In this document: positions 10,315 to 49,428 of the stretch, piece after piece
Layout of the letters: each line of letters begins with the position of its first letter
Numbering within the stretch: position 1 is the first letter of the stretch
Assembly (NCBI GenBank): GCA_963806185.1
Contig: CAWDXE010000001.1
Coordinates: forward strand, 1,035,734 to 1,099,733
DNA: 64,000 nt
From: an uncultured candidate division Zixibacteria bacterium
Lineage (GTDB): Bacteria > Zixibacteria > MSB-5A5 > GN15 > FEB-12
Direction: 5' to 3'
Position numbers and translations under genes: made by a program
Notes under the pieces: generated by a model
The model's database searches: none
What the model was told of the DNA's origin: nothing
Seen by the model: only the letters and a program-made list of their open reading frames with translations

Positions 10315-13044
10315 ATGACCTTCAAAACCCTCATGCGATGTAGCCTTGCGCTGCTGACGTTATTTGTTATACCGTTGGCAGTGCAGGCCACGGTGCACAA
10401 TGTGAGCATCGTGGAATTTTCCTTCAACCCCACCCCGCTGCAAATCGAGTGGGGTGATACGGTGAAGTGGACAAACAACGGTGCTATGGAGCACACGTCG
10501 ACTTCCACCGCCGCTTCGCCCAAATCCTGGGATTCCGGGTCGTTGCTGCCCGGCCAGTCGTTTTCCGTCGATTTTCCCTCTGACGACGGCCCAGGGCCGT
10601 TCCCCTACGTATGTACGTTCCATAGTCTCTCGATGACGGGTGTGATCATCATCCTGCCGGCGCCGCGCGGCGCCTGCTGTCTGCCCACTCCCCCGGGTGG
10701 CTGCGTCATCAAGACGTTGAAAGAATGTACCGCCTTGGGCGGCACGTACCAGGGCGACAATGTCACCTGCGCCCAGGCCAATTGCGGTTCGGGGCCGACC
10801 GGCGCTTGCTGCCTTCTTACGGGTTGCGTCCAGATGACCGCCCAGAACTGCGCCGCGGCCAACGGTTACTACATGGGGGACAACACGAGTTGTGGTACCC
10901 CGAACATCTGCATTGTTGTCGGAGCCTGCTGCGTCCCGGCGACGGGCCAGTGTTTTGAAACCAACATGCCGTCCGAATGCGCCAACGTGAATGGCATTTT
11001 CACACCCGGCGGGACGTGTGCCACGGTTAATTGTGGTACGCCGACCGGCGCCTGCTGTACGCAGGGAGCCGCTGGATCGGTGTGTTCGGTCATTACGGCC
11101 GCGGCTTGCGCTGCTGCCGGTGGCACTTACTACGGCGACGGCACCAATTGCAACAGCAATCCGTGTGATAACACCTTTGGTGCCTGCTGTCTGCCGAGCG
11201 GCGCTTGCGTTCAGTTGACGGCCTTCGAATGTGACCTCGCTCACGGTATCTTTGCCGGCCCCAACACGCCGTGTACTGGCCAAACTTGTCACCCCGTTGA
11301 AGGCGCTTGCTGCGTCCCCGGTGCGACCTGCTTCCAGACCACTGAGGATCAGTGCAAAGCTGCCGGTGGCATTTGGGCAGGTGCCGGCGTTCCGTGCGTA
11401 CCTGACCCGTGCAGCCCGCCACGCGGCGCCTGCTGTATACCCGGTGCCCCTTGTATGATGCTCTCGGCGGCCGATTGTGCCGCAGCCGGCGGCATCTACA
11501 AAGGCGACGGTGTCCCGTGCACGCCGGGCATCTGTAACAATAATCCCGAAATCGGTGCCTGCTGCCTGCCCAACGGCCAGTGCGTCCAGGTACTCGAGGC
11601 CGACTGTATCAAGCATCAAGGTCAGTGGCAAGGTCCGGGGACTCCTTGCGTAGCCGGGCTCTGCCCGACTCCGGTCGAGGGTGCCTGTTGTATCCCCGGT
11701 GCCGGCTGTGTGATCATGACCCAGGCCGAGTGCTTGCACCAGGGTGGCATCTATAAGGGTGACGGCACCAATTGCCTGCCGCCGAATCCGTGCGATCCGC
11801 CTGTCGGCGCCTGCTGCACGCAAACCGGTGGCTGCGTCCAGACTACGGCCCAAAAGTGTAAAGACCACGGCGGTGTCTGGCAGGGTATTGGCGTACCGTG
11901 TATTCCTAATCCGTGCAAAACCAACGATACCACTGGCGCTTGCTGTCTGCCGGACGGCACCTGCATCAGCCCCGTCACACCGGTGGATTGCCAATTCAAA
12001 CACGGCATCTTCCTCGGCGTCGGGACTGCCTGCGTCGGCGTCCAGTGTCCGACCAATATCGACGGCGCCTGCTGCTTGCCGAATGGTACCTGCGTTCAGG
12101 CCCTTCAGTCTGAATGCAAACAGTTCGGCGGTACCTGGTACGGCGGTGGCGTTCCTTGCTCACCGACCCTCTGCCCGCCTGCTGAAACCGGCGCCTGCTG
12201 TCTGCCCGACGGTAGTTGCATCCAGACCACGCCGCTTCTCTGCAAGCGGAAACAGGGCGTCTTCCAGGGTGCCGGTTCCAACTGCGCGCTGGTCCACTGC
12301 AAGCCTCCGACGAAGGGTGCCTGCTGTCTGCCCGACGGCACCTGTGCGCTGACGACGGCTGCTCAGTGTAAAGCCTCCCACGGTGCCTGGCAGGGCAACG
12401 GTACTAGTTGCTCGCCGAATCCGTGCGGCAAACCCAAAGGTGCCTGCTGTCTCCCGACCGGTGGTTGTGTTGTCGTGACGGCGATCGAATGCGAACGCTT
12501 GCACGGCATCTACAAGGGTGACAACATCCCATGTCTCGCCACCACTTGCGAACCGAATCACCCGCAAGGTGGTTGCTGCCTGCCTAATGGCGCCGGCTGT
12601 GTCGTGACGACGCAGACCGATTGTGCTGCTATCGGCGGCGTCTACATGGGTAACGGCGCGCCATGCAACGCGGCGGTCTGCCCGGTCTCTGCTCCGACCG
12701 GTTGCTGTCGCTTGCCCGACGGTACGGCCATCCAGACTACGGGCGTGGCCTGTGCCGGCGCCGGTGGCTTCTATCTCGGCGATAATACCAAGTGCCCGAT
12801 CGCGTCAACTTTGACCAGTTGCTGCGTCGGGGCGACCGGCAATATCGACGGCGATCCCGCCGGTGGTGTCGACATTGGCGACTTAACCGCCTTCATTGAT
12901 AACCTGTTCATCAACTTCACGCCGGTTCCATGCGATCAGTCGGCTGACCTTGATGGCAACGGGAGTATCGATATTGGCGACATGACCGCCCTCATCGACA
13001 ACCTGTTCATCACGTTTACCGATCCGGGACCGTGTACTGAATAG
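10315..13044 (+). CDS. Secreted cupredoxin + 17 Cys-rich GACC repeats + C-terminal dockerin-like protein
   Basis: Signal peptide ending AVQA; plastocyanin-like domain (FSFNP..GDTVKWTN..HT..YVCTFHSLSM); tandem repeats of about 41 aa; two EF-hand-like segments GNIDGD..VDIGDL and ADLDGNGSIDIGDM; GGAGG RBS. Confidence 0.9.
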   Translation: MTFKTLMRCSLALLTLFVIPLAVQATVHNVSIVEFSFNPTPLQIEWGDTVKWTNNGAMEHTSTSTAASPKSWDSGSLLPGQSFSVDFPSDDGPGPFPYVCTFHSLSMTGVIIILPAPRGACCLPTPPGGCVIKTLKECTALGGTYQGDNVTCAQANCGSGPTGACCLLTGCVQMTAQNCAAANGYYMGDNTSCGTPNICIVVGACCVPATGQCFETNMPSECANVNGIFTPGGTCATVNCGTPTGACCTQGAAGSVCSVITAAACAAAGGTYYGDGTNCNSNPCDNTFGACCLPSGACVQLTAFECDLAHGIFAGPNTPCTGQTCHPVEGACCVPGATCFQTTEDQCKAAGGIWAGAGVPCVPDPCSPPRGACCIPGAPCMMLSAADCAAAGGIYKGDGVPCTPGICNNNPEIGACCLPNGQCVQVLEADCIKHQGQWQGPGTPCVAGLCPTPVEGACCIPGAGCVIMTQAECLHQGGIYKGDGTNCLPPNPCDPPVGACCTQTGGCVQTTAQKCKDHGGVWQGIGVPCIPNPCKTNDTTGACCLPDGTCISPVTPVDCQFKHGIFLGVGTACVGVQCPTNIDGACCLPNGTCVQALQSECKQFGGTWYGGGVPCSPTLCPPAETGACCLPDGSCIQTTPLLCKRKQGVFQGAGSNCALVHCKPPTKGACCLPDGTCALTTAAQCKASHGAWQGNGTSCSPNPCGKPKGACCLPTGGCVVVTAIECERLHGIYKGDNIPCLATTCEPNHPQGGCCLPNGAGCVVTTQTDCAAIGGVYMGNGAPCNAAVCPVSAPTGCCRLPDGTAIQTTGVACAGAGGFYLGDNTKCPIASTLTSCCVGATGNIDGDPAGGVDIGDLTAFIDNLFINFTPVPCDQSADLDGNGSIDIGDMTALIDNLFITFTDPGPCTE
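10666..12795 (+). repeat. Intragenic tandem array of 16 six-cysteine repeats plus one degenerate four-cysteine repeat
   Basis: Consensus GACC(L/I)PxGxC-x7/8-C-x3-GGx(W/Y/F)xGxGxxC-x4/5-C, counted in the translation. Confidence 0.95.
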
Positions 13045-13071
13045 CACTTTCGAAGTGATGTGAACTCAGTG

Positions 13072-13108
13072 CGGCGGTTGTGCTTTGGCACAGCCGCCGC
13101 TTTATTTT
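13072..13108 (+). terminator. Intrinsic terminator
   Basis: GCGGCGGTTGTGC-TTTG-GCACAGCCGCCGC followed by TTTATTTT. Confidence 0.8.
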
Positions 13109-13173
13109 GCTCGACCATTGCCCAACGACCCGCCGAAGCGTACATTGGGGGGGATTATTGACGAATTATCTCT

Positions 13174-14976
13174 ATGAAGAAGTCTAATACGAAGGCACCA
13201 CAACCCAAATCACCGGTTCAAGCGACCCTACCTGTTGTCGCCTGGCTGGGGGCGCTTGCCCTCATTGCCGTGGCCACCATCGCGTCTCTGATGCTGTCGC
13301 TCAAACACATCTGGGCCATCGACTTGATCGGCTGCGGCCGGGGCGGCGGATGCGATGAAGTCATCCGCGGATCGTGGGGCATTCTCCTTGGCTGGCCTGT
13401 GGCCTTCGTTGGTCTGGCGTATTTTGCCGGCTGGTTTGTGTTTTGTTTGATGAGCCGACAATCCTCAACACCATCCTGGCTGCGCCTGATTGCCTCGCTC
13501 GGTAGTCTGGTGTCGCTCTTCTATATCGCCATCATGATTGTTGACGGTCACTACTGCGTGTGGTGCTTCACTGCCCACGTGGCCAATCTCCTGTTTACCC
13601 TTCTCCTCTGGATGAACTGGCGATTCTCGTCGGCACCTGTTCCCCGGTTGCCGCTGGTGACCGCGGCTCTCATCGGCGTACTGCTTCTGGCGGCGAGCCG
13701 TCTGACCTACGCCACCCGCTCGCAGGCTGCCACGGCTCGCGAGGCCGCCAGCGCCGCCGAATCCATTGCCAACATCAGCGCACCGACGGAGCAATCGAGA
13801 ATATTTGGCGGCCGTTTTTGGAGCGGTGCGGTGAATGCCGACGTTCGCGTGGTGGTTTTTCACGACTACCAGTGCGAATTATGTCACGAGGTCGAGGTGC
13901 AGCTTTTGTCGCTCTTGAACTCACGTACTGACGTGGCGCTGTCGTACAAGCAGTGGCCGTTCGACGCTTCCTGCAACGAACAGATGCACGGCAGTTCGCC
14001 TCATCCCGAAGCGTGTCTGGCTGCGAAGGCCGTAGAAGCTGCGGGCATTCTGGGCGGCGCGCGCGCCTACTGGTCGATGCATAACGCGCTTATGCGCGCG
14101 AACAGTATGACACAGGAGTACATAATCAATCTGGCCGTCCAGTCCGGTCTTGACCGCGTGGCGTTTGCCGCGACCATGCAGTCGCCTCAGGTAGACAGCC
14201 TCATTCAATCCGACATTGCCGAAGGTGTTGCCTACGGTCTGACCTATACCCCGCTCATCTTCGTCAACGGTTACCCCGTGCGTGGCTGGCGGACGGCCGG
14301 CGCCCTTCCCGAGGCTATCAATCGGGCCGCCCTCTTTGCCAAACAGCAACCGAAAGCAGCCGATCTCCCCGACTCGGCCGCGTACGAACAACTGGCCATC
14401 TGGCAATCAACCCAACCAACTGCCACTCTCCCCGAAGTGGATCGCCCTGCTCTGCTCGGGCCCGGCAACGCGACAAACACGATTGTCATGTTCGGCGACC
14501 TCACCTGCCCGTTTAATGCCGCGGCTATGAATGTCCTGAGACCGATTATCGAATCACGCACCGATACCCGGCTGTTGTTCTATCACTTTCCTCTCGACCT
14601 TGACTGCAATCCACTTCTCAAACAGCAAATCAATCAGTTCGCCTGCGAGGCCACGCGGATCGTCGAGGGCATCCGTCTCCAGAAGGGGGATGATGCATAC
14701 AAACAGGCCTGCCTTTGGGTGATCGCCAATCGGGAACGCATCGGCGCCTCCGCCATGGCTGAGCTGGGACAGCTTTTTGGCCTCGATGCCCCCGCGGTCG
14801 CTGCACTGCTGTCGTCGGACCAGACCGCGGCCCTGCTCAAGAAGGACATGGACCGCGCGGTGGCGCTGAATATTACCACCTCGCCGACCATCTACATTAA
14901 CGGTAAGTTAGTGCCCAACTGGCGGATACCAGGGCTCTTTCCGAAGATACTCGACGCCGCCCGCATCAAACCATAG
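13174..14976 (+). CDS. Vitamin K epoxide reductase (VKOR) domain fused to two DsbA-like thioredoxin domains
   Basis: VKOR loop cysteines CGRGGGCDEV and CVWC redox motif in TM region; Trx1 DYQCELC with TYTP loop; Trx2 DLTCPFN with TSP loop. Confidence 0.88.
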   Translation: MKKSNTKAPQPKSPVQATLPVVAWLGALALIAVATIASLMLSLKHIWAIDLIGCGRGGGCDEVIRGSWGILLGWPVAFVGLAYFAGWFVFCLMSRQSSTPSWLRLIASLGSLVSLFYIAIMIVDGHYCVWCFTAHVANLLFTLLLWMNWRFSSAPVPRLPLVTAALIGVLLLAASRLTYATRSQAATAREAASAAESIANISAPTEQSRIFGGRFWSGAVNADVRVVVFHDYQCELCHEVEVQLLSLLNSRTDVALSYKQWPFDASCNEQMHGSSPHPEACLAAKAVEAAGILGGARAYWSMHNALMRANSMTQEYIINLAVQSGLDRVAFAATMQSPQVDSLIQSDIAEGVAYGLTYTPLIFVNGYPVRGWRTAGALPEAINRAALFAKQQPKAADLPDSAAYEQLAIWQSTQPTATLPEVDRPALLGPGNATNTIVMFGDLTCPFNAAAMNVLRPIIESRTDTRLLFYHFPLDLDCNPLLKQQINQFACEATRIVEGIRLQKGDDAYKQACLWVIANRERIGASAMAELGQLFGLDAPAVAALLSSDQTAALLKKDMDRAVALNITTSPTIYINGKLVPNWRIPGLFPKILDAARIKP

Positions 14977-32231: not shown

Positions 32232-32782
32232 GTACTCCGTAATATGTAAATGAATATACCAATTCGCTCATTAACTCCGGGGATAGGTCCGACAGGCGGC
32301 GAGGATCAGCCTGTCAAATATGCGTGAACAACCCTTCCCTTTCACCTAAGACGCTCCAACCCAACAGTTCACCCAAACAAATGGACAGGCAAAGTAGCGA
32401 ACCCCGCGCATACTGTCAAGTGTCAGAAACAAAATAGGTTGGACTCGTCGGTCCTCATTGCCATGTCGCCTCCAGAGGGAATTATTCATCATCCAATGAC
32501 TGTACCAACACCCCTTCTCCATCCCCCCCGTCAGCTCGAAAAAAATGTGCGTGATCTCAAACCAATTGCTCCCAAAACGGTTACCGGCCTGATTCGACCG
32601 GCGACAATCAGGTCATTCTTCCTCTCGAAATGTCACTGATTTAAAAACCGACGTTGGGGAATTTTATTCCCGAGCGATATGGTGGATATTTCCCTGAAGT
32701 TGCGCCGATACTTCCCCTTCCCCTGCCGACCAACCCCGGTAACACATTTAAGATCAATGGATTAGTTGAGATACCGCCGGCA

Positions 32783-32798
32783 TGGCACCAGGCTTGCA
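32783..32798 (+). promoter_or_regulatory. Sigma54 -24/-12 promoter of the SLBB export gene
   Basis: TGGCAC-CAGGC-TTGCA; IHF-like GATCAATGGATTA at 32752-32764. Confidence 0.8.
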
Positions 32799-32870
32799 AT
32801 AGTCGTCGGTGCGATCAGGAGGATCGCCCGAAAAACGACTACGACTGCAAACTACCATAGGAAGGTGAGT

Positions 32871-35213
32871 ATGCGCAAAGTCCTGTTCTTTATCATACTG
32901 GTCATTGTACTGGTATCGCTAAACTGGTTTCACAATGTCTTCGCCGACGATGCCATACCGGCCGGTGTGAATCTGGGCGACATTCAATTGAGTGACGCGC
33001 AGAAGGAGGCTCTTCTTAAGCGTTCGGCGGGCACATCCCCCGTCCAGAATCGACCATATACCACACCCAGACTTTACGATTCGTCGTCGGCTCCCCGCTT
33101 GCCCCAACCTGTTGACACCACGGCTGACAGCACGCTGACGGCCACGGCACGCGAACTGGTTCCGTTTGAGGATCTTAAACCGTTCGGGATAGAACTTTTC
33201 GCGGCACCGCACGAATCCACCCCACCCGAGGATATCGCTTCCTCCAGTGACTATCTCGTCGGACCGGGCGACAATATCGTCGTGTCACTCTGGGGTCGAG
33301 TGGAGAATGAATTCACGCTGACAGTTGATCGGGAAGGCAAAGTGTTCATTCCGAAGGTTGGCCAGATTGTCGTCTGGGGCAAAACCCTCGATCAATGCCG
33401 AACCGCTTTTCAACAGCGTTTCAGCGCCGTCTACTCAGAATTTCAGCTCAACGTCTCATTGGGCAAAATTCGATCGATCCGACTGTACTTGACCGGAGAG
33501 GTCCGTCGCCCCGGAGCCTACAGTGTATCATCCCTCACCTCCCTGTTTAATGCGCTCTACCTGGCCGGAGGTCCGACTGAAAACGGCTCGATGCGTGACA
33601 TTCGCCTGATGCGTCGGGGGACGGCCATCACCACGGTTGATCTCTACAAATTCCTGTTGGAGGGTGACAATTCCAGTGACGTCCGTCTCGAATCGGGCGA
33701 TGCCATCTTTGTGCCTGTCGCCGGCGCGCGCGTGGCAATTCGCGGCCAGATTCGTCGCCCCGCTATTTACGAATTGAAACAGAATGAAACCGCCGGCGAA
33801 CTGCTCTTGCTCGCCGGACGGCCGACCCCGGAGGCGTATCTGGGGCGCGTCATGCTGGAACGCGTCTCGGATCGCGATCAATGGGAGGTGGTCGATCTCA
33901 ATCTGGAACCCGCCTCTACCGATGCCGGCTCCTGCCAGCCGATGAAAGACGGCGACCGGATGACCGTGTTTTCCATCTTTCAGGCCAACCAGAATCGGGT
34001 GGCCATATTCGGCATGGTCAAACATCCCGGCTATTACGAGCGTACCGATACCACCCGCATTGCCGATATCCTGGCCCGTGGCCAGTTGCAGGAATACGAC
34101 GTCTTTTATCAACGGGCCAATCTGTTCCGACGGCATTCGGACTGGCGTACCGAGGTCATCTCGGTCGATCTGCGCGCCGTGCTCAACGGCGACTCGACCC
34201 AGAATCTGATCCTGCAACGGCGCGACTCGCTCCACGTCTACAGCATGGACGAAATTACATGGAAAAAACTGGTCAAGATCGAGGGCGAAGTGAACCGCCC
34301 CGGCGAATATCCGCTGTACGATCAGATGACGGTCAAGGATCTGGTCTTCCTGGCCGGCTCGTTCACCCGAAGCGCGTCATTGTTGCGTGCCGAAGTCGCG
34401 CGCATCGACACCGCCAGCCAGGTGAATATTCAGTATATCGATCTTGGTGATGATTCGGCCATGGCTACCGTGCTGGACGAAGAAGATCACGTCTACATTC
34501 GTCGCATTCCGCAGTGGCAATTGCATCGCACCGTGACGATCACCGGCGAGGTCAATTACCCCGGCGAGTACATGATGTCCAACCGTCAGGAAACACTCTA
34601 TGATCTGCTCACGCGCTCGGGGGGCTTTACGGAAAGCGCCTTCCCGCGCGGCACGATCTTCCGCCGTAAATCGATTGGCGACGTCATCAACCGGTCCGGC
34701 ATTCAGTCGGTGCTCGCGAAATCAAGCCCCATGACTCAGGACTCCACCGGGAAGATCACGCGCACGGTGCATTTCGATATCGAACCAGCCGCGCTCAGCC
34801 GCATGGTCATCGACATGGACAAGATCGAAGCCTCGCGCGGGCAGTTTGGTAATATCGTTCTTGAACCGGGCGACAGTATTCATGTCCCATCGCTCCCGTC
34901 CGGAATCACCGTGATGGGAGCCGTCGGCGCCAACGGTACCATCAAATACCTCGAAGATCAAAACGTGAAATATTACGTCAACCGGGCCGGCAATTTTGCC
35001 TTACAGGCGGACAAGAAGCAGACTCGCCTGATCAAAGCCAATGGCCTCGTCTATTCGGGTGGCGGCGTCCTCGGCAAACACGTCGATCTCGGTGATATCA
35101 TCGTCGTGCCGACCAAGGTTGAAAAAGATCACGACTGGACCAAGTCACTCACCGCCATACTGGGCATAACCACCAGTGCGCTCACTACGGCGCTACTGAT
35201 TACCAAGCTCTAG
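32871..35213 (+). CDS. Polysaccharide export protein with multiple SLBB domains (Wza/KpsD-like)
   Basis: YLVGPGD Poly_export motif, repeated GEVxRPGxY SLBB units, C-terminal amphipathic helix. Confidence 0.9.
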   Translation: MRKVLFFIILVIVLVSLNWFHNVFADDAIPAGVNLGDIQLSDAQKEALLKRSAGTSPVQNRPYTTPRLYDSSSAPRLPQPVDTTADSTLTATARELVPFEDLKPFGIELFAAPHESTPPEDIASSSDYLVGPGDNIVVSLWGRVENEFTLTVDREGKVFIPKVGQIVVWGKTLDQCRTAFQQRFSAVYSEFQLNVSLGKIRSIRLYLTGEVRRPGAYSVSSLTSLFNALYLAGGPTENGSMRDIRLMRRGTAITTVDLYKFLLEGDNSSDVRLESGDAIFVPVAGARVAIRGQIRRPAIYELKQNETAGELLLLAGRPTPEAYLGRVMLERVSDRDQWEVVDLNLEPASTDAGSCQPMKDGDRMTVFSIFQANQNRVAIFGMVKHPGYYERTDTTRIADILARGQLQEYDVFYQRANLFRRHSDWRTEVISVDLRAVLNGDSTQNLILQRRDSLHVYSMDEITWKKLVKIEGEVNRPGEYPLYDQMTVKDLVFLAGSFTRSASLLRAEVARIDTASQVNIQYIDLGDDSAMATVLDEEDHVYIRRIPQWQLHRTVTITGEVNYPGEYMMSNRQETLYDLLTRSGGFTESAFPRGTIFRRKSIGDVINRSGIQSVLAKSSPMTQDSTGKITRTVHFDIEPAALSRMVIDMDKIEASRGQFGNIVLEPGDSIHVPSLPSGITVMGAVGANGTIKYLEDQNVKYYVNRAGNFALQADKKQTRLIKANGLVYSGGGVLGKHVDLGDIIVVPTKVEKDHDWTKSLTAILGITTSALTTALLITKL

Positions 35214-35424
35214 CCAGACTCTCTTTCATTCTCACCTTCCTAACGGCCGTCGATCACGGGAAACCGGGATCGACGGTTTAATCATGGGGCTGGAAATATC
35301 TTCCCGCCCGAACGGAAACCAAGGCCCCACACAGTCCGAAAAACGCCCCACCGGCAACGCCCGCCACACACTTAAGCACAATAAACCCAACAACTTAAAT
35401 AATACTTGCCGCCGCGGCCGAGGC

Positions 35425-35440
35425 TGGCACCCCGCTTGCA
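35425..35440 (+). promoter_or_regulatory. Sigma54 -24/-12 promoter of the aminotransferase-like/sugar transferase operon
   Basis: TGGCAC-CCCGC-TTGCA preceded by an AT-rich tract. Confidence 0.8.
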
Positions 35441-35474
35441 AAACAGTAGCCAGACATAGGAAGGATGAATTACC

Positions 35475-36698
35475 ATGGATTGGAAACGCTCACCTTCAGC
35501 TACTGCCGTTCAGCCGCCAAGGACTGCGGCCGACGACCAGGATTCCGCTTCCCTGCGGAAATTCTTCACATCTGCCGATACCAAAATGACAGGCTCGGCC
35601 ACCGCGGATGATCGTCATACGCACAACGAATTCGTGGCCAAACAGGGGGAATCTATGACCAACCGATTAATGGAAGCCGGTCAGAATCGTGTTGAGGAAA
35701 TCGTCGATCGGATCGCCAAGACGCTGGAAATCAGTCCGGCAATGGTACTTCCCTTCGTCGATTCGACCGACTGTCTGGCCGAATTGCTGCATCATGTCGA
35801 ACCGGTCAATGGCCGGATACTTGCTGCGGGGCATGTCACGCCCGACGTCGCCCTGGCTGCCCACCGGGCCAAAGTCGAGATGAAAGAGATTCTCGGCGCC
35901 TCTCCATTCTGCGGAGACCTGGAGTCACTGCTCCGGGAAGTCATCTCCGAATACGACGTTATCTACCTTGCCAACCCAAGCCGCATCACCGGGGCAAATT
36001 TCTCCCTGGCCGATTTGGAAGCTATGGCCAAGGCAGTGCCGAGCGGGCGACTCATTATTGACGAATACTATTTCGATTTCTACGGCATCACCGGTATTGC
36101 GCTGATCAAGCAGTATTCCAACGTGGTCGTGCTGCGCTCTTTCACGGCCGCCTTTGGCATCGGTTCCGCCGAATCCGGCTATCTGGTTGCGGCTCCGGCG
36201 ACAGTTGTGCAGCTGCAGAAGTCGCTCCCGCCCGAGTCGGTATCGATGACGCTCTACCGGATTATCACGACCGTCATCGAGAATGCGGCCAACCAGACAA
36301 AGCGATTGACCGCCCTTCACGACGAGTCGCTCCGCCTGGCGACCGTGCTGACTCGTCTGGGTGTTCAATGCCGTCTGACCGCCACCGATTTTCTGCTCAT
36401 GCGTGTGGCCAGCCCGACGGAAGTGGGCAACTACCTGGGCAGGTTCCGCGCTCCCATCGAAGATCTGAGCGGGTATCCGGAAATGGGAAATTACATTCGC
36501 TACAAGCTTCAGTCGGAATTCTCCAATAACAATCTGTTGAAGGGATTCGAGAAGATTCCACCGGGCTGTTACAAGATGTCCACGCCGGATCGACGGGCAG
36601 TTCGCCTGCGCCATTCCGGTGACACCACGGTAGCGAGCAAACTGATGCCGGCAAATGTCGCTGATCGGCATCGCGTCCTTGTGGCCGCCAAACAGTAA
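35475..36698 (+). CDS. Class I/II aminotransferase-fold (HisC-like) protein lacking the PLP lysine
   Basis: IYLANPSRITG, LIIDEYYFDF, VVVLRSFTAAFGIGSAESGY versus canonical LRTFSKAYGLAGLRxGY; alternative start 35655. Confidence 0.75.
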   Translation: MDWKRSPSATAVQPPRTAADDQDSASLRKFFTSADTKMTGSATADDRHTHNEFVAKQGESMTNRLMEAGQNRVEEIVDRIAKTLEISPAMVLPFVDSTDCLAELLHHVEPVNGRILAAGHVTPDVALAAHRAKVEMKEILGASPFCGDLESLLREVISEYDVIYLANPSRITGANFSLADLEAMAKAVPSGRLIIDEYYFDFYGITGIALIKQYSNVVVLRSFTAAFGIGSAESGYLVAAPATVVQLQKSLPPESVSMTLYRIITTVIENAANQTKRLTALHDESLRLATVLTRLGVQCRLTATDFLLMRVASPTEVGNYLGRFRAPIEDLSGYPEMGNYIRYKLQSEFSNNNLLKGFEKIPPGCYKMSTPDRRAVRLRHSGDTTVASKLMPANVADRHRVLVAAKQ

Positions 36699-36722
36699 CC
36701 TCGGACAGATTGGGTTATACTG

Positions 36723-38282
36723 ATGCTTCCTGAAATCGACTGCCCCGAACCGATTCTTACTGAATCAGCGAATCCGCCTGCGAGCCGGAGGGCCTTCGAC
36801 CAATTCGTCAGCAGCGAATCCGCGCGCGAACATGACTCCTTCGATGAAACACTCGACGCCCAGCCGACCCGTGTCGGACGAACTGCCTTGTTCGTTCGCA
36901 AAACCATTCTCGCCATCTGCGGTCAATACGGTGCGATTGGTATTTCGCTGGTCGCTCTGACCATAGGCTTCTCGCTCCACCCCGTGCCCTGGTCGATCAT
37001 GGTTGAAGCCGGCGTGGCCATAATACTGATTCGCCTCGCCTATCTGGTGACTCGCGGCCCCAAACCGGTGCTCCGCGCCCACACGATTCGCAAGCGCGCC
37101 CGCTGGGTGCTGGTCGACGAAGCCAAAATCAGCGCCGCGTTTCTATCAGTCTGTTATCTGCTCGACTGGCCGGTGGGCAGACTGACAGTCGGCCTGTTTG
37201 TCGCTTTCAACCTCTGTCTCCAGTTGGCCATGCTCTGGTATTCCCGGCTCATGCTCGCCGGGTTGAGCCGCCAGGCGCAACGACTCGGCAACGTCATACT
37301 GAAGCGACGGGCGATCATTGTCGGCACCGGTCCAAAAGCCCTGGAAATTGCCAATCAGATTCTTGATTCGCCCGACGTTGACACTCAAATCATCGGCTTT
37401 CTCGATTATCATAAGAAGTCACTCTGGCGTTATCGCGATATTCCGTTTCTTGGCCACCCGGAACAACTCAGGGAAATTGCCACCAACGGTCAGCTCGATG
37501 CACTGTTCATTGCGGTCGAACCCGAAGATGTCAGCAACGCCAAGGCGGTCTTCACTGCGGCCGAAGAAATGGGCGTGCCGGTCTTCCTCATGCCGGATGT
37601 CTTCCCGTCGTCGATCGCCTTTGCTCGCTCCGGGTACTTCTGCGGCATGGCCACCCTTATCTATCGCTCGGTGCCGGACGACCACTTCACTCTTCTCGCA
37701 AAATCGATGATCGATCGTGTTGGCGCGATATTCGGACTACTGATGGCCGCTCCCATGATTATTGGTGCTGCTCTGGCTATCAAACTCGACAGCCGGGGGC
37801 CGGTCTTTTTCGCCCAGGTGCGCGTCGGCCTGAATGGCAAGACTTTCAGACTCTATAAATTTCGCACCATGTGCCGCGACGCCGAGCAACTCAAGGCACA
37901 ACTGGCCGGCAGCAACGAAATGTCCGGGCCGGTATTCAAAATGAAAGACGATCCGCGCATCACACGGGTTGGACGATTCCTGCGACGGTACTCGATCGAC
38001 GAATTGCCGCAGCTATTCAATGTTCTGCACGGCGACATGTCGCTGGTCGGCCCGCGTCCTGCTCTGCCCAAAGAAGTCTGTCGCTTCAAACCGTGGCAGC
38101 ATCGCAAGCTGGCGGTTAAGCCGGGTGTCACCTGCATCTGGCAGGTGAGCGGTCGCAACAATATCGACTTCGAGGACTGGATGCGGCTGGACTTGAACTA
38201 CATTGATAACTGGTCGCTCTGGCTCGACGCAAAAATTCTGGCAAAGACAGTGCCAGCGGTACTAAGGGGATCGGGGATGTAA
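36723..38282 (+). CDS. Priming glycosyltransferase (polyprenyl-phosphate sugar-1-phosphate transferase, WcaJ-like)
   Basis: N-terminal TMs, IIVGTG, YKFRTM, DDPRIT..LRRYSIDELPQL, GDMSLVGPRP, KPGVTCIWQVSGR. Confidence 0.92.
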   Translation: MLPEIDCPEPILTESANPPASRRAFDQFVSSESAREHDSFDETLDAQPTRVGRTALFVRKTILAICGQYGAIGISLVALTIGFSLHPVPWSIMVEAGVAIILIRLAYLVTRGPKPVLRAHTIRKRARWVLVDEAKISAAFLSVCYLLDWPVGRLTVGLFVAFNLCLQLAMLWYSRLMLAGLSRQAQRLGNVILKRRAIIVGTGPKALEIANQILDSPDVDTQIIGFLDYHKKSLWRYRDIPFLGHPEQLREIATNGQLDALFIAVEPEDVSNAKAVFTAAEEMGVPVFLMPDVFPSSIAFARSGYFCGMATLIYRSVPDDHFTLLAKSMIDRVGAIFGLLMAAPMIIGAALAIKLDSRGPVFFAQVRVGLNGKTFRLYKFRTMCRDAEQLKAQLAGSNEMSGPVFKMKDDPRITRVGRFLRRYSIDELPQLFNVLHGDMSLVGPRPALPKEVCRFKPWQHRKLAVKPGVTCIWQVSGRNNIDFEDWMRLDLNYIDNWSLWLDAKILAKTVPAVLRGSGM

Positions 38283-38320
38283 GCACATCCCCGATGCAAT
38301 AAACACGGCAGGAGGCCGAC

Positions 38321-39770
38321 ATGTTCGCCAGGACGGCGATCATCTTTCTTGCACTCATCAGCAGTTCATCACTCACCGCGCAGGTTATCCCGGCCGGCCA
38401 TCGTGAATACGATCTGCTCTACGACCAGGTTGAAGCGAACCGATGCCCTGTCAGTCGGACGGTTCGATCGCCAACTGGGACCGTACTCATTTGCCGATCT
38501 GCGCGTTTCTCCCGGTCCCTTTGCTTATCTCCAATCAAACGACGACCGCTACCTGACCCTCTTTGGTTTCGGCCGCGAGCAATTTGACGCCCGCCGAGCC
38601 ACTCGCGCGACCGCCTTCGAGTCGATCCGTGGCGGACTGGTCGGCGCGCCGCTGAAAAACGTCTACATCTACGGTCAGTTTGTACTCGATGAACAGAAGG
38701 CCGACGATCCCGCTTACACCGGTAAGAAATGGCGCGGTCTGGCCGGCGATGTTGAGGACGCTTTTGCCGTCTACGCCACCAATCGGCTGAACATCACCGT
38801 TGGACGCTTTGGCAGTTTCTGGGGAATGCGCGAGTCGCTGATCCTCGGCGCCGAACAGAAGCTTGACGGTCTGGCCTATAGCATCCGGTGGGGAAGACTC
38901 CGCCTGTCGTATCGATTGGCCCGACTCAATCCGTTGCACGTGTTGACAGATAGCGTGAGCATCACCGAGAACAGATACTTCGCCGGACATCGCCTCGATA
39001 TCCATCTCTCCGATGACTTGCGCGTTGGAGCGTTCGAGACCATCATCTTCGGTGGTGAAGGCCGACAGATTGAATTCGCTTACCTCAATCCTCTGCTGTT
39101 TTATCACGGCACCCAACTCAATGATTCAACCAATGACAATGCCCTCATCGGTATCGACTTCGATTGGAAACCACTCCATCGCATGAATCTCTTTGGCCAG
39201 CTGGTGGTGGATGATTGGCAGATCGACAACCAATCACAGGGTGATCAGGAGCCAAACGAATTCGGCCTGCTGGTCGGCGGCTTTCTCGCCGACCTTCTGC
39301 CCGAGACCGACGCGAAATTGACATATATCCGCGTGACAAACCGCACCTACAATCAGATACTCCCACGAAACCGCTATATTAATGATGGCGGCCTGCTGAG
39401 CAGCCCACAGGGCAACGACTTCGACAACGCCCGGCTCGAGATTCGGCACTGGCTCAGCCCCCTTCGCTACCTGCGCACCAGACTCTCATTTCTGCGTCAA
39501 GGTGAAGGAAGCGTTGACGATCCCTGGACTCAGCCCTGGCTCGACATCACCGGCCCATATCACGAACCGTTCCCCACGGGTGTAGTGGAAACGTCCACGA
39601 ACATCTCACTCGGTGGAAAGGGAGTCGCTTTCGATCATCTCTACTTCGATATCGATGCCGGCCTGTCGCACATCAAAAACGACGGTCACGTCGCCGGCGC
39701 CAACCGCACCAGCCTGTTTGCCAGTATCTGCCTGTCGGTCTTTGGCTTTACGTCGATTCCAGTGGATTGA
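38321..39770 (+). CDS. Capsule assembly Wzi-family outer-membrane protein (frameshift near 38425)
   Basis: Signal peptide MFARTAIIFLAL in one frame joins the long ORF containing RYFAGHRL, FETIIFGG, YLNP, DNALIG, GQLVVDD. Confidence 0.72.
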
Positions 39771-39852
39771 TCCGATACTCCACCAAAACCTTTTCTCGAT
39801 TTTGCGGTTCCAATATGATACGTTGTCCGCCGCAAAGTGAAATGGGAGACTC

Positions 39853-41910
39853 ATGATCGAATCGACTCAGGACCGCCGGCCCAATCGACTGATTGGCGAA
39901 ACCAGTCCCTACCTTCTTCAACACGCCTACAATCCGGTGGCCTGGTTCCCCTGGGGTGACGAAGCGCTCACCAAAGCGCGCGCCGAGGACAAGCCGATTT
40001 TCCTCTCCATCGGGTATGCCGCCTGCCACTGGTGCCATGTCATGGAACACGAATCGTTTGAAAGCGCGCAGATCGCTGAATTTCTGAACGAGCACTACGT
40101 CAGTATCAAGGTCGATCGCGAACAACGGCCCGATCTCGACCACATATATATGACCTTCACGCAGGCGATGGTCGGACAGGGGGGATGGCCGATGTCTGTC
40201 TTTCTCACTCCCGATCTGAAACCGTTTTTCGCCGGGACCTATTTTCCACCTGACGACCGCCATGGTCGGCCCGGCTTCATGCGCGTAATAACCGAGATCA
40301 TTGCCGCCTACAAAGAGAATCGCGATGAGGTTGTTAAGTCTGCGGATGACATTTTCGAACAAATCGAACAGATCCTCCAGGCCGACCACGGTCAGGCCAT
40401 GCTTCTCCCCGCGCTGTACAACAACAGTGTTCAGGAGTTGATGAAGGCGTTTGATCATCAGCACGGCGGTTTTGGCTCGGCGCCGAAATTTCCCCATGCG
40501 CTCGAACTGTCCCTGTTCCTGCGCCATTACGCCAAATCCGGCGACCTTACTTATCTACAGGCAGCTGAAAAGGCCCTTCTGGCTATGGCGCGCGGCGGAA
40601 TCCACGATCAGCTCGGCGGCGGCTTCGCTCGCTATTCGACCGACGCCCAGTGGCTGGTCCCCCACTTCGAGAAGATGCTCTATGACAACGCGCTTCTCGT
40701 CCCGACCTACGCGGAGGCGTATCAAGTGACCGGCAATCAGGTCTATCTCGATATCGTGCGCAGCACGCTCGATTTCATTCTTCGCGAAATGAGCGACCCG
40801 GCCGGCGGATTCTATTCCAGTCTCGACGCAGACAGCGAAGGGCACGAGGGGAAATTCTACGTCTGGCCCAAAGACGAAATCGAACGAACGTTGGGTGCCG
40901 AGGCTCAAAGAGCGACTGAATACTTCAATGTGACGAGCGTGGGCAATTTCGAAGGCGTGAACATACTTCATCTTTCACCGGCATCGGACCGCATTCAAGC
41001 CGAACTTGGCGATACGTTCCCCGGTTGGCTGCAATCGATCAAAGCAAAGTTGTTTGATGCTCGCAGCAGGCGCGTGCGCCCGTCAACTGATGACAAGATT
41101 CTGACGTCGTGGAACGGCCTCGCCCTGACCGCCTTCTGCCGAGGGTACCAGGTGACGGGTGACCCGCAGTATCTGATAGCCGCGCGTCGCAACGCCCGCT
41201 TTGTCATGCAGCACCTGTCGCAGAACGGCGGATTGCTGACTCACTCCTACCGCGACGGCAAGCACTCCGATGGCCGCTTCCTCGAGGATTACGCCTACTA
41301 CCTGCGCGGTCTTCTCGATCTGTACGAATCGGATACTTCGGCCGAAAGCGAGGACTGGCTCCGTTTCGCTCGCACGCTGGCCGATCACGCGCTCGATCTC
41401 TTTCAGGATCCCCAGACCGGAACCCTCTTTCTTCGCGAGGCCAACCAGCCCGACCTGATTGTGCGGCCGAAAGACGAAACCGATACCGCCCTGCCTGCGC
41501 CAGGATCACTGCTGATCGGCTCGCTCCTGCGTCTCGAACGACTGACCGGGAATCTTCACTACGGTAAAGCGGCCGAACTCGGCTTGCGCGCCGTCTCCGG
41601 CCACATCGAGCGGTACCCCACCGCGATGGCCTCGGCTCTCATCGCGCTCGAATACTACATTGCCGACCGAATCGAAATTGTCATCGTCGGCTCCGGTGAC
41701 CTACGCGATCAGATGTTAGAAACAATCTATCGTAAGTTCCTCCCTAATCGAGTCCTTGCGATGAGCGCGACTGGGCAGGACGGCTTGCCGCTTTTTGAGG
41801 GACGGTCAGCCGATCCGGGGCAGGTGCGCGCTTTCGTTTGCCGCAACTCAGTCTGCCGCCTGCCGGTGACGACTGTCGACGCCCTTCAGACCGAGCTTGC
41901 GAAACTGTAA
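39853..41910 (+). CDS. YyaL/SPATA20-like thioredoxin + alpha/alpha-barrel protein (DUF255)
   Basis: [52 protein letters not shown]. Confidence 0.93.
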
Positions 41911-42024
41911 GCTGTTATTCGATGTCTACTTATCGGATACACTTTTTCACTTTCTTCTCCTGGGGCAATTTCCTACCTTGGGCGCGATTGGTATAAAGAA
42001 TGGCCCCTCGGCGGGCCGATAAGG

Positions 42025-42837
42025 ATGAGTAGAGTGTCTCACGGATACGACGACAAATCCATAGCCGAGTTAGCCCTGGAATCCTCACCTATGACTGAAA
42101 CGACGGTAACATCGCCTCTCGGTTCAATCAGCGCGCCGGTCGCCGCCGCGGCGTCGCGTGCCCGTCTTGTTTTGGTCGGGTCGCGCGAGTCCGTCGGAGA
42201 AGAACGGGTGGTGCCGTTTGCCCTGCCGGATCACAACCGGCTGGCGCTGGTGGTGAAGCGAGGCATTGATATTTTGGGTGCGTCACTCTTCCTGATCGTG
42301 TCGTCGCCGATCATCGGCCTGCTCGGCCTGCTCATCAAGATGGAAAGCCACGGCCCGATCTTCTTCCGCCAGATTCGTCTGGGCGTGAACGGTAAGCCGT
42401 TTTACATGTTCAAGCTGCGGACGATGGTTTCCGATGCTGAACGTCGCAAGAAGGATCTACTTGCGCACAACGAACAGGATGGCCCCGCCTTTAAGATTCG
42501 CAAGGATCCGCGTATTACCACGCTTGGGCGGTTGCTGCGCAAGTTTTCGCTCGATGAACTCCCGCAGTTTGTGAACGTGTTGATGGGCGACATGTCGCTC
42601 GTGGGACCAAGGCCGCCGTTGCCGAAGGAAGTCATGCGGTACGAGACATGGCAGAAGCGCCGCTTGTCGGTGAAGCCGGGCGTGACCTGTGTATGGCAGG
42701 TTGACGGTCGCAATCAGGTCAGTTTTGACGATTGGGTGAAGCTTGATCTCTGGTATATCGACCACTGGTCGCTATGGTTGGATATTAAGTTGATTGCCAG
42801 AACGCTTCCGGCCGTTCTCCGCGGCTCCGGGCTGTAG
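42025..42837 (+). CDS. Short sugar transferase (second priming phosphoglycosyltransferase)
   Basis: KRGIDI, FKLRTM, DPRIT..LRKFSLDELPQF, GDMSLVGPRP; alternative start 42091. Confidence 0.9.
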   Translation: MSRVSHGYDDKSIAELALESSPMTETTVTSPLGSISAPVAAAASRARLVLVGSRESVGEERVVPFALPDHNRLALVVKRGIDILGASLFLIVSSPIIGLLGLLIKMESHGPIFFRQIRLGVNGKPFYMFKLRTMVSDAERRKKDLLAHNEQDGPAFKIRKDPRITTLGRLLRKFSLDELPQFVNVLMGDMSLVGPRPPLPKEVMRYETWQKRRLSVKPGVTCVWQVDGRNQVSFDDWVKLDLWYIDHWSLWLDIKLIARTLPAVLRGSGL

Positions 42838-48128: not shown

Positions 48129-48566
48129 TCACCCTCTCCCCTCCGCTCTCGCCTTCAGCGCCTGATTCATCATTTCAAACCCGCGCCGCGTATTGTCGTT
48201 CAACATCCTCTTCATGAACGGCACGAGCAGGCCGCGAAAGTTTTCGCCATGCAGAAATCGCACCATGCCCGGGTCGGTCGGCTCGATGATGAAGTAATGT
48301 TCCCCGCTGAACAGACCGGGGATCGGCAGTCGTCCGACCCAACGCAGTTCGCGCGGCTTGTCGACCACGAGAAGTTCCGGAGACATGGTCATCGTTCTGG
48401 TATCGGGGGGCGCGATGCTGATGATCAGCTTCTCCCCTACTTTCGGCAGACCGCGAACTGATGTCAGCATCGGATTCCATTCGGCGTGCCGGGGGAAATC
48501 AATGAGCATCTCCCACACCCGTTCGGGTGTGGCGGAGATATCGATGAATGTGGTTAGGGTGAGCAT
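48129..48566 (-). CDS. SRPBCC (polyketide cyclase/START-like) domain protein
   Basis: IDISATPERVWEMLIDF..WNP, ELRWVG, GEHYF, GFEMMNQALKARAE. Confidence 0.88.
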   Translation of the reverse strand: MLTLTTFIDISATPERVWEMLIDFPRHAEWNPMLTSVRGLPKVGEKLIISIAPPDTRTMTMSPELLVVDKPRELRWVGRLPIPGLFSGEHYFIIEPTDPGMVRFLHGENFRGLLVPFMKRMLNDNTRRGFEMMNQALKARAEGRG

Positions 48567-48648
48567 GGGGGGAAGATATCGGACACGTGGTGATCGGACA
48601 ATGGTCTTTTGTATTGTTAATTGTGCGTTGATTCGCAAATATGCTGCG

Positions 48649-49428
48649 ATGGATCTCACTTTACCTACTTACTTGGGAAGTAATTATCTAAGCAACTCTC
48701 AGCGTGCTCGGGTGATCACCGAAGCATGGGCCGTCAGAAATCTATATTGTCCGGCATGCGATGCAGAGCTATTAACTCAATTCCCGGCGAATAGCCGGGC
48801 CGTCGATTTTCATTGTTCGCTCTGCAATTCACGATATCAGTTAAAGGCAACCAAGAGCGCCATTGGAGGAAGAATTAATGATTCGGCCTATGAATCTATG
48901 ATGAGCGCAATCAGGAATAATCAGTGTCCTCACTTCATCATCATGCGGTATGACCTGGCCTCTGCTCGTGTGCGGGACTTACTGTTGCTCCCCTCTTTTG
49001 GGATATCCGAGAGCGCGATTATTGCTCGAAGGCCGCTGGCGCCGACAGCTAGGCGCGCAGGTTGGGTCGGATGTCTAATTGACTTGGGATATCTCCCGGC
49101 CAACGCACGAATTTTGATCGTCCAGAATTTTGCCGTTCAGCCCCGCGAACACGTTACAGCGAAGTTTGCCTCGCTAAGGCCCTTGGAAAGTCATTCCGCG
49201 AAATCCCGGGGCTGGGCTCTAGACGTATTGACATTGGTTCAAACGCTCAAGCGAGAGGAGTTTTCGTTGAGCGACATTTATGCGAGCGAAGCAGTACTTG
49301 CGGCGCTTCATACTAACAATAGGAACATTAGAGCCAAGATTCGACAACAGCTGCAGGTACTTCGCGACCTTGGCTTAATAAAATTCCTCAGCCCTGGTCG
49401 GTACTCGCTCTTGGGGAGCGTGAAATAG
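48649..49428 (+). CDS. DpnI-like (Dam-replacing family) modification-dependent restriction endonuclease
   Basis: SQRARVITEAW..YCPAC, VDFHCSLC..YQLK, RRPLAPTARRAGWVGC, winged helix NRNIRAKIRQQLQVLRDLG; AT-richer than neighbours. Confidence 0.88.
   Translation: MDLTLPTYLGSNYLSNSQRARVITEAWAVRNLYCPACDAELLTQFPANSRAVDFHCSLCNSRYQLKATKSAIGGRINDSAYESMMSAIRNNQCPHFIIMRYDLASARVRDLLLLPSFGISESAIIARRPLAPTARRAGWVGCLIDLGYLPANARILIVQNFAVQPREHVTAKFASLRPLESHSAKSRGWALDVLTLVQTLKREEFSLSDIYASEAVLAALHTNNRNIRAKIRQQLQVLRDLGLIKFLSPGRYSLLGSVK

Follow-up and report, generated by a model that had tools for sequence, protein, structure and literature searches.

A probable accessory disulfide oxidase of the VKOR-DsbA type linked to a long six-cysteine repeat protein in Zixibacteria

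Introduction

Does a disulfide-forming enzyme encoded beside a secreted protein with more than a hundred cysteines serve to fold that protein? The question is raised by two neighboring genes in a 64,000-nucleotide stretch of DNA (the window) from an uncultured Zixibacteria bacterium (GenBank assembly GCA_963806185.1). The window is part of contig C1 of a 3.65 Mb genome that is 82% complete. Gene 1 encodes a protein with a cupredoxin domain, a long array of six-cysteine repeats and a dockerin-like tail, and gene 2 encodes one polypeptide in which a VKOR domain is fused to two DsbA-like domains. An initial annotation of the sequence had proposed that the pair is a client with a dedicated secretion and oxidative-folding machine for a copper-tipped stalk. 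Here we conclude that gene 2 probably encodes a self-contained disulfide oxidase of an accessory kind, which supplements a likely general pathway based on MauE. It would be passed on and retained jointly with the long repeat protein, which is probably the client it favors. The preference is probably partial, and the enzyme can likely serve other secreted proteins as well.

Results

The three domains named for gene 2 in the initial annotation were all recovered (Table 1), the second DsbA-like domain lacking a CXXC and reading C-P-F-N instead. The product matched PF07884 with an E-value of 1.8e-9 (38.3 bits, above the cut-off of 27.5), and two DSBA stretches were also matched. We counted motif conservation over 159 full-length homologs of the fusion. 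The VKOR loop cysteine pair was present in 156 and the VKOR CXXC in 157 of these, the remainder being gaps, and the CXXC, T-P loop and extra cysteine pair of domain 1 were each found in all 159. In domain 2 the proline was kept, as was the extra cysteine pair (154/159), and none of the 12 most frequent active-site patterns, together accounting for 150 of the 159 homologs, is a CXXC; several Zixibacteria fusions have no cysteine at this site. Because the two DsbA domains are 30% identical to each other, one is likely a duplicated, inactivated copy.

Domain 1 has a thioredoxin fold with a helical insert, a CXXC and a cis-Pro loop, and it structurally matches BdbD and alpha-DsbA. The closest solved relatives of the fusion are BdbD/alpha-DsbA/ScsC-type proteins and the Synechococcus VKOR-thioredoxin fusion, and profile matches to bacterial VKOR-thioredoxin/DsbA fusions ranged from E 2e-11 to 8e-9. 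Because the N-terminus is basic and the helix count odd, we infer that the modelled VKOR helical bundle would place the thioredoxin-fold domains outside. The fusion family comprises at least 150 clusters (50% identity) scoring above 550 bits to the family profile, and the best 80 of 282 confirmed genome matches are mostly from Planctomycetota. Two Zixibacteria (L065 and L069) carry another VKOR architecture of 515-560 amino acids (aa) that is unrelated to the fusion; the N-terminus of the gene beside it resembles a peptidase-C39 transporter.

The open reading frame (ORF) of gene 1 was confirmed as that of a secreted 909-aa protein, with 106 cysteines where about 105 had been reported. One of these lies in the signal-like N-terminus, and the mature protein minus its copper ligand has 104, an even count. 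The proposed cupredoxin-repeat-dockerin makeup held for the cupredoxin and the repeats. PF00127 matched residues 30-113 with an E-value of 1.9e-4, or 1.1e-6 when the domain was cut out, and the His/Cys/His/Met copper ligand motif is kept in all eight orthologs that have the cupredoxin domain. The tail scored 16.9 bits against Pfam Dockerin_1 (PF00404), under the 22.9 cut-off, and by this profile criterion it is classed as dockerin-like only. With the tail as a phmmer query, 87 ORFs in the genome matched, gene 1 included. The genome also has three cohesin matches above cut-off, one in a protein that appears from its sequence to have a type IX secretion system (T9SS)-like C-terminus.

Seven aligned orthologs of gene 1 showed identities of 43-55%, and the Zixibacteria orthologs carry 11-17 repeats. 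A second array copy in genome G021 has a DUF7901 head in place of the cupredoxin. The two array genes of this genome, one cupredoxin-headed and one DUF7901-headed, stand in tandem (L059:6833-19460) just downstream of MenB/MenA/MenC/MenE-like genes. The proximity to menaquinone-synthesis-type genes is possibly a coincidence; menaquinone would be a plausible VKOR acceptor.

We next asked how far the two genes occur together, searching 285 Zixibacteria genomes with an array ortholog threshold of E ≤ 1e-55 (the next best match, at 2e-32, is a 4-repeat protein). VKOR matches in G022, G065 and G105 (C151) that lack the fusion domains were not counted. Eleven genomes carry the fusion and 10 a repeat-protein ortholog; 9 carry both, which is 9 of the 12 genomes that have either. 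Of the three exceptions, G187 is 58% complete, and in G134 (78% complete) the repeat gene is cut off by the contig edge, at the end where three congeners carry the fusion. The third, G135, has a broken fusion copy that groups with planctomycete fusions (Shimodaira-Hasegawa approximate likelihood ratio test, SH-aLRT, 99). This gene (L063:395-2304) is interrupted by a stop and a frame change, and it would represent either a separate transfer or a mis-binned contig.

The adjacency seen in the source genome is retained in six of the nine Zixibacteria genomes with both genes and recurs in Planctomycetota. The six cases lie in four unrelated neighborhoods: the repeat gene precedes the fusion in the source genome, follows it in G010 and G033, and is divergent from it in G088, G120 and G136. 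A convergent pair was found at L161. Within genus g5, two of eight genomes have both genes and six have neither. Three 99%-complete congeners of this genus keep the flanking genes with no match to the repeat gene. An empty-site comparison at the g5 fusion locus was uninformative, since three congeners gave no match, not even to the flanks.

Outside the phylum, we examined 73 loci, mostly from Planctomycetota. Repeat genes occupied 8 of 136 immediate-neighbor slots vs 3 of 679 farther ones (Fisher p 5e-5, an overstatement given that related genomes are not independent). When duplicates were retained, for a total of 160 loci, the counts were 23/293 immediate and 9/1281 farther slots. Of the non-redundant fusions, which number 135 (flanks sufficient for evaluation in 116), 30 are linked to a repeat gene lying no more than about 2 kb off. 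The 30 linked cases have mutual identities of 27-81% (median 36%), and the layout is divergent in 20. On a 71-row tree that excludes repeat-less loci with less than 1 kb of upstream sequence, linkage requires 9-10 changes, compared with 14.7 on average in shuffles, so it is clustered, though also scattered.

We also sampled 201 evenly drawn Phycisphaerae genomes and scored 4-6 array candidates in each. Full-length fusions were found in 15, and strong long-array matches occurred in 7 of 14 fusion genomes (the query genome excluded) vs 3 of 186 others. Each of five planctomycete genomes tested holds a few repeat genes, so the repeats are a general feature there. Repeat similarity was slightly higher to Phycisphaerales arrays (mean scores 82-86) than to other Zixibacteria arrays (77-81), and in unrooted trees the Zixibacteria fusion clade was not nested in any planctomycete clade; we claim no donor for a transfer between the phyla.

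A second family of divergent neighbors of the fusion (L110, L134, L171, L201 and L144) has an unannotated cysteine-containing N-terminal domain followed by four repeats, and at L144 this domain occurs without repeats. In 7 of the 15 Phycisphaerae fusion genomes (G429, G337, G409, G360, G388, G478 and G443) there is a second, weaker match of about the extent of VKOR plus one DsbA, which suggests a general and a specialized copy.

The repeat itself has no family in Pfam or NCBIfam, and its Atlas matches are unnamed clusters. Each repeat is predicted to form a small bead of a beta-hairpin and a helix. An AlphaFold2 model of three repeats (predicted local distance difference test, pLDDT, 89; predicted template modelling score, pTM, 0.50) was locally confident, with loose placement from bead to bead. 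When a profile of 91 repeats was run against 177,635 PDB sequences, iRhom1/2 were the sole matches under E 0.1 (4e-6 for the whole protein and 1e-3 for the best single domain), and all six cysteines align. Structure searches also put iRhom chains first, the root-mean-square deviation being 1.8-1.9 Å over 41 residues; Foldseek with the repeat model returned nothing at E ≤ 0.001.

The iRhom domain is described as stapled by 8 disulfides and as having an unprecedented fold (PMC11248996; here and below, statements on cited papers refer to their accessible parts), and the same number of disulfides is given elsewhere (10.1101/2024.12.22.629961; PMC13277793). The repeat aligns to one sub-module of the iRhom homology domain (PDB 8SNL, 9XY4, 9O58, 9Q7Y), at about residues 568-611 of iRhom2. 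However, the bacterial copies are free tandem arrays, and the match spans about 40 of the 240 iRhom-domain residues. From this alignment, homology of the repeat to an iRhom module is plausible.

Among 578 distinct repeats, 498 retain all six cysteines. The sixth is missing at its model position in 70, and among the examples inspected an insert often displaces it. Cys2 and Cys6 are jointly lost in five terminal repeats. Because all six cysteines align with the iRhom module, and because Cys2 and Cys6 are lost together, the repeat cysteines would form disulfides; the pattern and the alignment favor this over metal binding. A tentative bond map would pair Cys2 with Cys6, from their joint loss, and, as a guess, Cys1 with Cys4 and Cys3 with Cys5. 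In fusion-less Zixibacteria (L273-L292), the repeat often has an Asp-rich insert before the sixth cysteine that resembles a calcium-binding loop.

Is the fusion then a housekeeping enzyme or an addition? In the source genome it is the sole VKOR, and neither a DsbB nor a stand-alone DsbA partner was found in this 82% complete assembly. An order-level survey of 151 genomes found VKOR in 12, DsbB in 1 and neither in 138. By contrast with the 11 genomes that have the fusion, MauE is present in 272 of the 285 Zixibacteria genomes (194 of the 198 of high quality), which makes the fusion a probable accessory enzyme rather than a housekeeping one. The MauE of the source genome (L260, G000:C7:566096-566479) carries a CGC motif; its gene overlaps a rhodanese-like gene and lies downstream of a ZIP transporter. 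In E. coli, DsbB can be replaced by a MauE that has a CXC motif, as a 2026 preprint shows (10.64898/2026.03.05.709764, whose accessible part does not mention Zixibacteria). Judging from gene content, the fusion probably supplements a default pathway that relies on MauE. That it is the sole housekeeping oxidase, a case against a dedicated machine which the initial annotation had itself named and which one VKOR and no DsbB might suggest, is judged unlikely given the near-universal MauE.

An aerobic lifestyle was considered as a shared cause of the distribution and rejected. Of the 108 genomes of the family, 77 have COX1-family genes, including 10 that carry the fusion; being so common, these genes do not explain the rare distribution of the fusion by respiration. 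Heme-copper oxidase family genes are a plausible electron sink.

The domains and their conserved motifs, the joint occurrence and recurrent adjacency of the genes and the distribution of MauE are established, and from knowledge of the families the pair would work as follows. The repeat protein would be exported unfolded through Sec. DsbA domain 1 would then oxidize its thiols with its CXXC, three disulfides per repeat and up to 52 from the 104 mature cysteines (copper ligand excluded), and, as known VKOR-thioredoxin fusions do, the enzyme would relay the electrons through the loop pair and CXXC of VKOR to quinone. Eukaryotic protein disulfide isomerase (PDI) combines active a domains with inactive b/b' domains, and by analogy the CXXC-less domain 2 likely holds unfolded substrate. 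Once folded, the client would resemble beads on a string, stapled by disulfides. Its tail would probably attach it to surface proteins that carry cohesins, with the copper domain at the opposite end.

The two genes lie on the same strand, separated by 129 bp and, as first annotated, by a terminator (a 13-bp stem followed by a T-tract). The terminator and the dominance of divergent layouts elsewhere argue for shared regulation or shared inheritance and not for one transcript. Upstream, gene 1 is flanked by a divergent ileS, and downstream of gene 2 are VTT-domain (DedA-like) and transporter genes. A larger conserved island was rejected, as the other neighbors vary between genera. In one metatranscriptome, gene 1 and the region upstream of it were matched by five short contigs that are nearly identical, and gene 2 by none; because the library may contain DNA, this was not used as evidence. 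Elsewhere in the window are a DpnI-family (Dam-replacing) restriction gene (48358-49428), upstream of a yidC/mnmE/gidA region, and a polysaccharide export/capsule cluster (32766-42837; Poly_export/SLBB, Wzi and two sugar transferases) that encloses a DUF255 thioredoxin-domain protein.

Table 1. Features of the gene pair (window coordinates) and other cysteine-rich secreted proteins of the source genome (G000)
Feature	Position	Strand	Basis or remarks
Gene 1, secreted cupredoxin - 17x six-Cys GACC repeat - dockerin-like protein	10315..13044	+	ORF, 909 aa, 106 Cys
Predicted Sec signal peptide, aa 1-25	10315..10389	+	Sequence reading: basic start, hydrophobic core, A-x-A-type cleavage site
Plastocyanin/amicyanin-like cupredoxin domain	10390..10659	+	PF00127 above cut-off; type-1 copper ligands H60, C100, H103, M107
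16 tandem ~42-aa repeats, aa 119-794	10669..12696	+	Spacing mostly CC-x5-C-x7-C-x13-C-x4-C
Degenerate 17th repeat, 4 Cys	12697..12804	+	Repeat analysis
Zixibacteria-type dockerin-like tail, two Asp-rich loops, 4 Cys	12814..13044	+	phmmer within genome; Pfam Dockerin_1 sub-threshold
Intrinsic-terminator-like hairpin (13-bp stem, 10 G-C pairs) and T-tract	13071..13110	+	Fold z -2.8 vs shuffles
Gene 2, VKOR-DsbA-DsbA* fusion	13174..14976	+	ORF, 600 aa; AlphaFold2 pLDDT 89, pTM 0.78
VKOR membrane domain, five hydrophobic segments	13234..13695	+	PF07884; loop Cys54/Cys60, C128-x-x-C131
DsbA-like domain 1, predicted catalytic	13789..14343	+	C234-E-L-C237, T359-P360, extra pair C267/C281
DsbA-like domain 2, no CXXC	14404..14973	+	C445-P-F-N; proline loop and pair C478/C491 kept
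Giant Cys-rich secreted proteins	G000 C7:366341-375763, C6:87881-97063, C1:744516-751013		Two end in T9SS-like C-terminal domain (sequence reading)

Discussion

Several observations weigh against our reading of gene 2 as an accessory oxidase kept with the repeat protein. Some bear on the link between the genes. The Zixibacteria fusions form one clade (SH-aLRT 100), so the match across nine genomes may rest on one acquisition with later losses or transfers, and, as relatives are not independent samples, few separate events may underlie the co-occurrence. The genes lie apart in three of the nine genomes (on different contigs in G021 and G105 and about 58 kb apart in G118), one Zixibacteria-clade fusion (L158) has no repeat gene within 10 kb, and the terminator-like hairpin between genes 1 and 2 is strong. 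Most planctomycete fusions have no repeat neighbor, argS or MeaB-type genes stand beside many of them, and in the Phycisphaerae sample no repeat gene adjoined the fusion at any of the 15 loci retrieved, one lying about 4.5 kb off. Others bear on the enzyme and its range. No DsbA-family domains other than those of the fusion were found in the source genome, and this genome encodes three other giant secreted proteins (2165-3140 aa, 106-159 cysteines) with a different repeat, and fusion-less Zixibacteria proteins have up to 12 repeats and 104 cysteines, the longest unbroken run being 8. VKOR proteins have a conserved Ser/Thr after the loop cysteines; most homologs read S-x-W here, whereas gene 2 has G-S-W, with Ser replaced by Gly, and several relatives have G-P-W/Y. 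The iRhom structural match scores low (Z 3.8-4.3, Foldseek E 0.2-0.7), and the paired loss of Cys2 and Cys6 is probably one ancestral event.

Many of these points would be expected if the fusion were a general-purpose extra oxidase that hitch-hiked, having entered one lineage together with the repeat gene and serving the whole cysteine-rich secretome (about 87 dockerin-tailed proteins) without preference. The single Zixibacteria clade, the sole DsbA-family domains, the other proteins with 106-159 cysteines, the terminator and the unpaired planctomycete copies all fit. However, we consider this explanation rather unlikely, because the adjacency persists in four orientations and several neighborhoods as the other neighbors change, both genes are kept even where unlinked (G021, G105 and G118) and are jointly absent in congeners, and the neighbor enrichment recurs in a second phylum with about 9-10 state changes on the tree. 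The association proposed by the initial annotation thus goes beyond chance, as the co-occurrence in 9 of 12 genomes and an adjacency that survives rearrangement and recurs in Planctomycetota indicate. Its strict dedication was overstated, given the repeat numbers in fusion-less relatives and the unpaired planctomycete fusions. Nothing points to a dedicated secretion system, and the copper-tipped stalk is not a constant part of the pair: with cupredoxin absent from the adjacent pairs in G033 and L160, the copper tip is, as far as these sequences go, dispensable for the pairing of repeat and fusion.

The opposite alternative, a strictly dedicated foldase without which unbroken arrays of at least 11 repeats could not fold and which acts as a tethered oxidase-isomerase, appears improbable. 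Arrays of 11-17 repeats do occur in fusion-bearing Zixibacteria while the longest unbroken fusion-less run is 8, and the six strongest Phycisphaerae long-array matches are all in fusion genomes. However, the fusion-less comparison covers 20 re-examined loci from a subset of about 70 weak-match genomes, and an ortholog-favoring search may miss long divergent arrays. Fusion-less genomes total 10-12 repeats, so neither the repeat nor the cysteine load strictly needs the fusion, and short genes of 2-4 repeats also adjoin it. A copper or redox system, in which the cysteines of the repeats would be metal ligands or would carry electrons between cupredoxin and the membrane VKOR/quinone pool, is highly improbable: although the type-1 copper ligand set is intact and ScsC-type copper-resistance proteins are among the matches of the DsbA domains, no cupredoxin is found in the adjacent partners of G033, L160 and Phycisphaerales, the repeat cysteines are even and fixed in number and resemble a disulfide-stapled eukaryotic module, VKOR is an inner-membrane enzyme, and the client tail is common to dozens of secreted proteins.

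Returning to the accessory oxidase with a preferred client, a more specific form of it can be put forward tentatively. The fusion may be a one-piece, PDI-like foldase (VKOR, an active DsbA and a substrate-holding pseudo-DsbA) that is specialized for long iRhom-like three-disulfide arrays and travels with its client between Planctomycetota and Zixibacteria, for stalks of about 50 disulfides that the MauE pathway folds poorly. As in PDI, an active thioredoxin-fold domain would stand beside a redox-inactive one that could bind substrate. The domains of gene 2 are DsbA-type folds fused to VKOR, and the comparison is an analogy only.

Gene 2 shares its build with the Synechococcus VKOR (PDB 3KP9/4NV2) and a Clostridium sp. 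VKOR-DsbA (PMC12453122), in which a VKOR with a loop pair and CXXC is fused to a periplasmic thioredoxin fold; the clostridial fusion complements E. coli dsbA dsbB (PMC12453122). It differs in having two full DsbA-type domains, each with an extra cysteine pair and the second without CXXC. It is also of a rare and patchy type that tracks one client family, in a phylum that almost always has MauE. The tail of gene 1 recalls cellulosome dockerin/cohesin display in its duplicated Asp-rich loops, with cohesins in the genome, but differs in falling under the Pfam cut-off and in being flanked by cysteines.

Client-linked accessory Dsb systems are known, one being BdbA/BdbB with sublancin. Like those that are dedicated to a client, gene 2 is encoded beside its candidate client and co-distributed with it. 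DsbL/DsbI with AssT (PMC6067686, PMC12453122) forms a second oxidative pathway that is tied to a particular disulfide-dependent client besides the general one, and MauD/MauE with methylamine dehydrogenase (10.64898/2026.03.05.709764) is likewise a client-linked second pathway. In contrast to these, gene 2 is a single VKOR-based polypeptide and its linkage is often divergent or separated by a terminator, and gene 1 has about 50 potential disulfides vs six reported for methylamine dehydrogenase (10.64898/2026.03.05.709764). By analogy, DsbL/DsbI-AssT or MauD/MauE is the likely model for how the pair works, and its enzyme has the build of the Synechococcus fusion. What sets the pair apart from the known systems is that the second DsbA domain is inactive, that the client is of a different scale and that MauE forms the background. 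A literature search, with most subscription papers and supplements outside its reach, found no description of this architecture or pairing.

The folding of secreted bacterial proteins with dozens of disulfides is poorly understood, and the client-linked Dsb systems cited here serve clients with few bonds. The gene pair offers a ready test system, with an oxidase encoded by a single gene and a modular client of 3 to 17 repeats, each suited to expression in E. coli dsb mutants. If true, the fusion of an active and an inactive DsbA to VKOR would be a bacterial counterpart of the PDI design and a possible tool for disulfide-rich proteins. For the whole uncultured phylum, MauE is the probable default disulfide enzyme.

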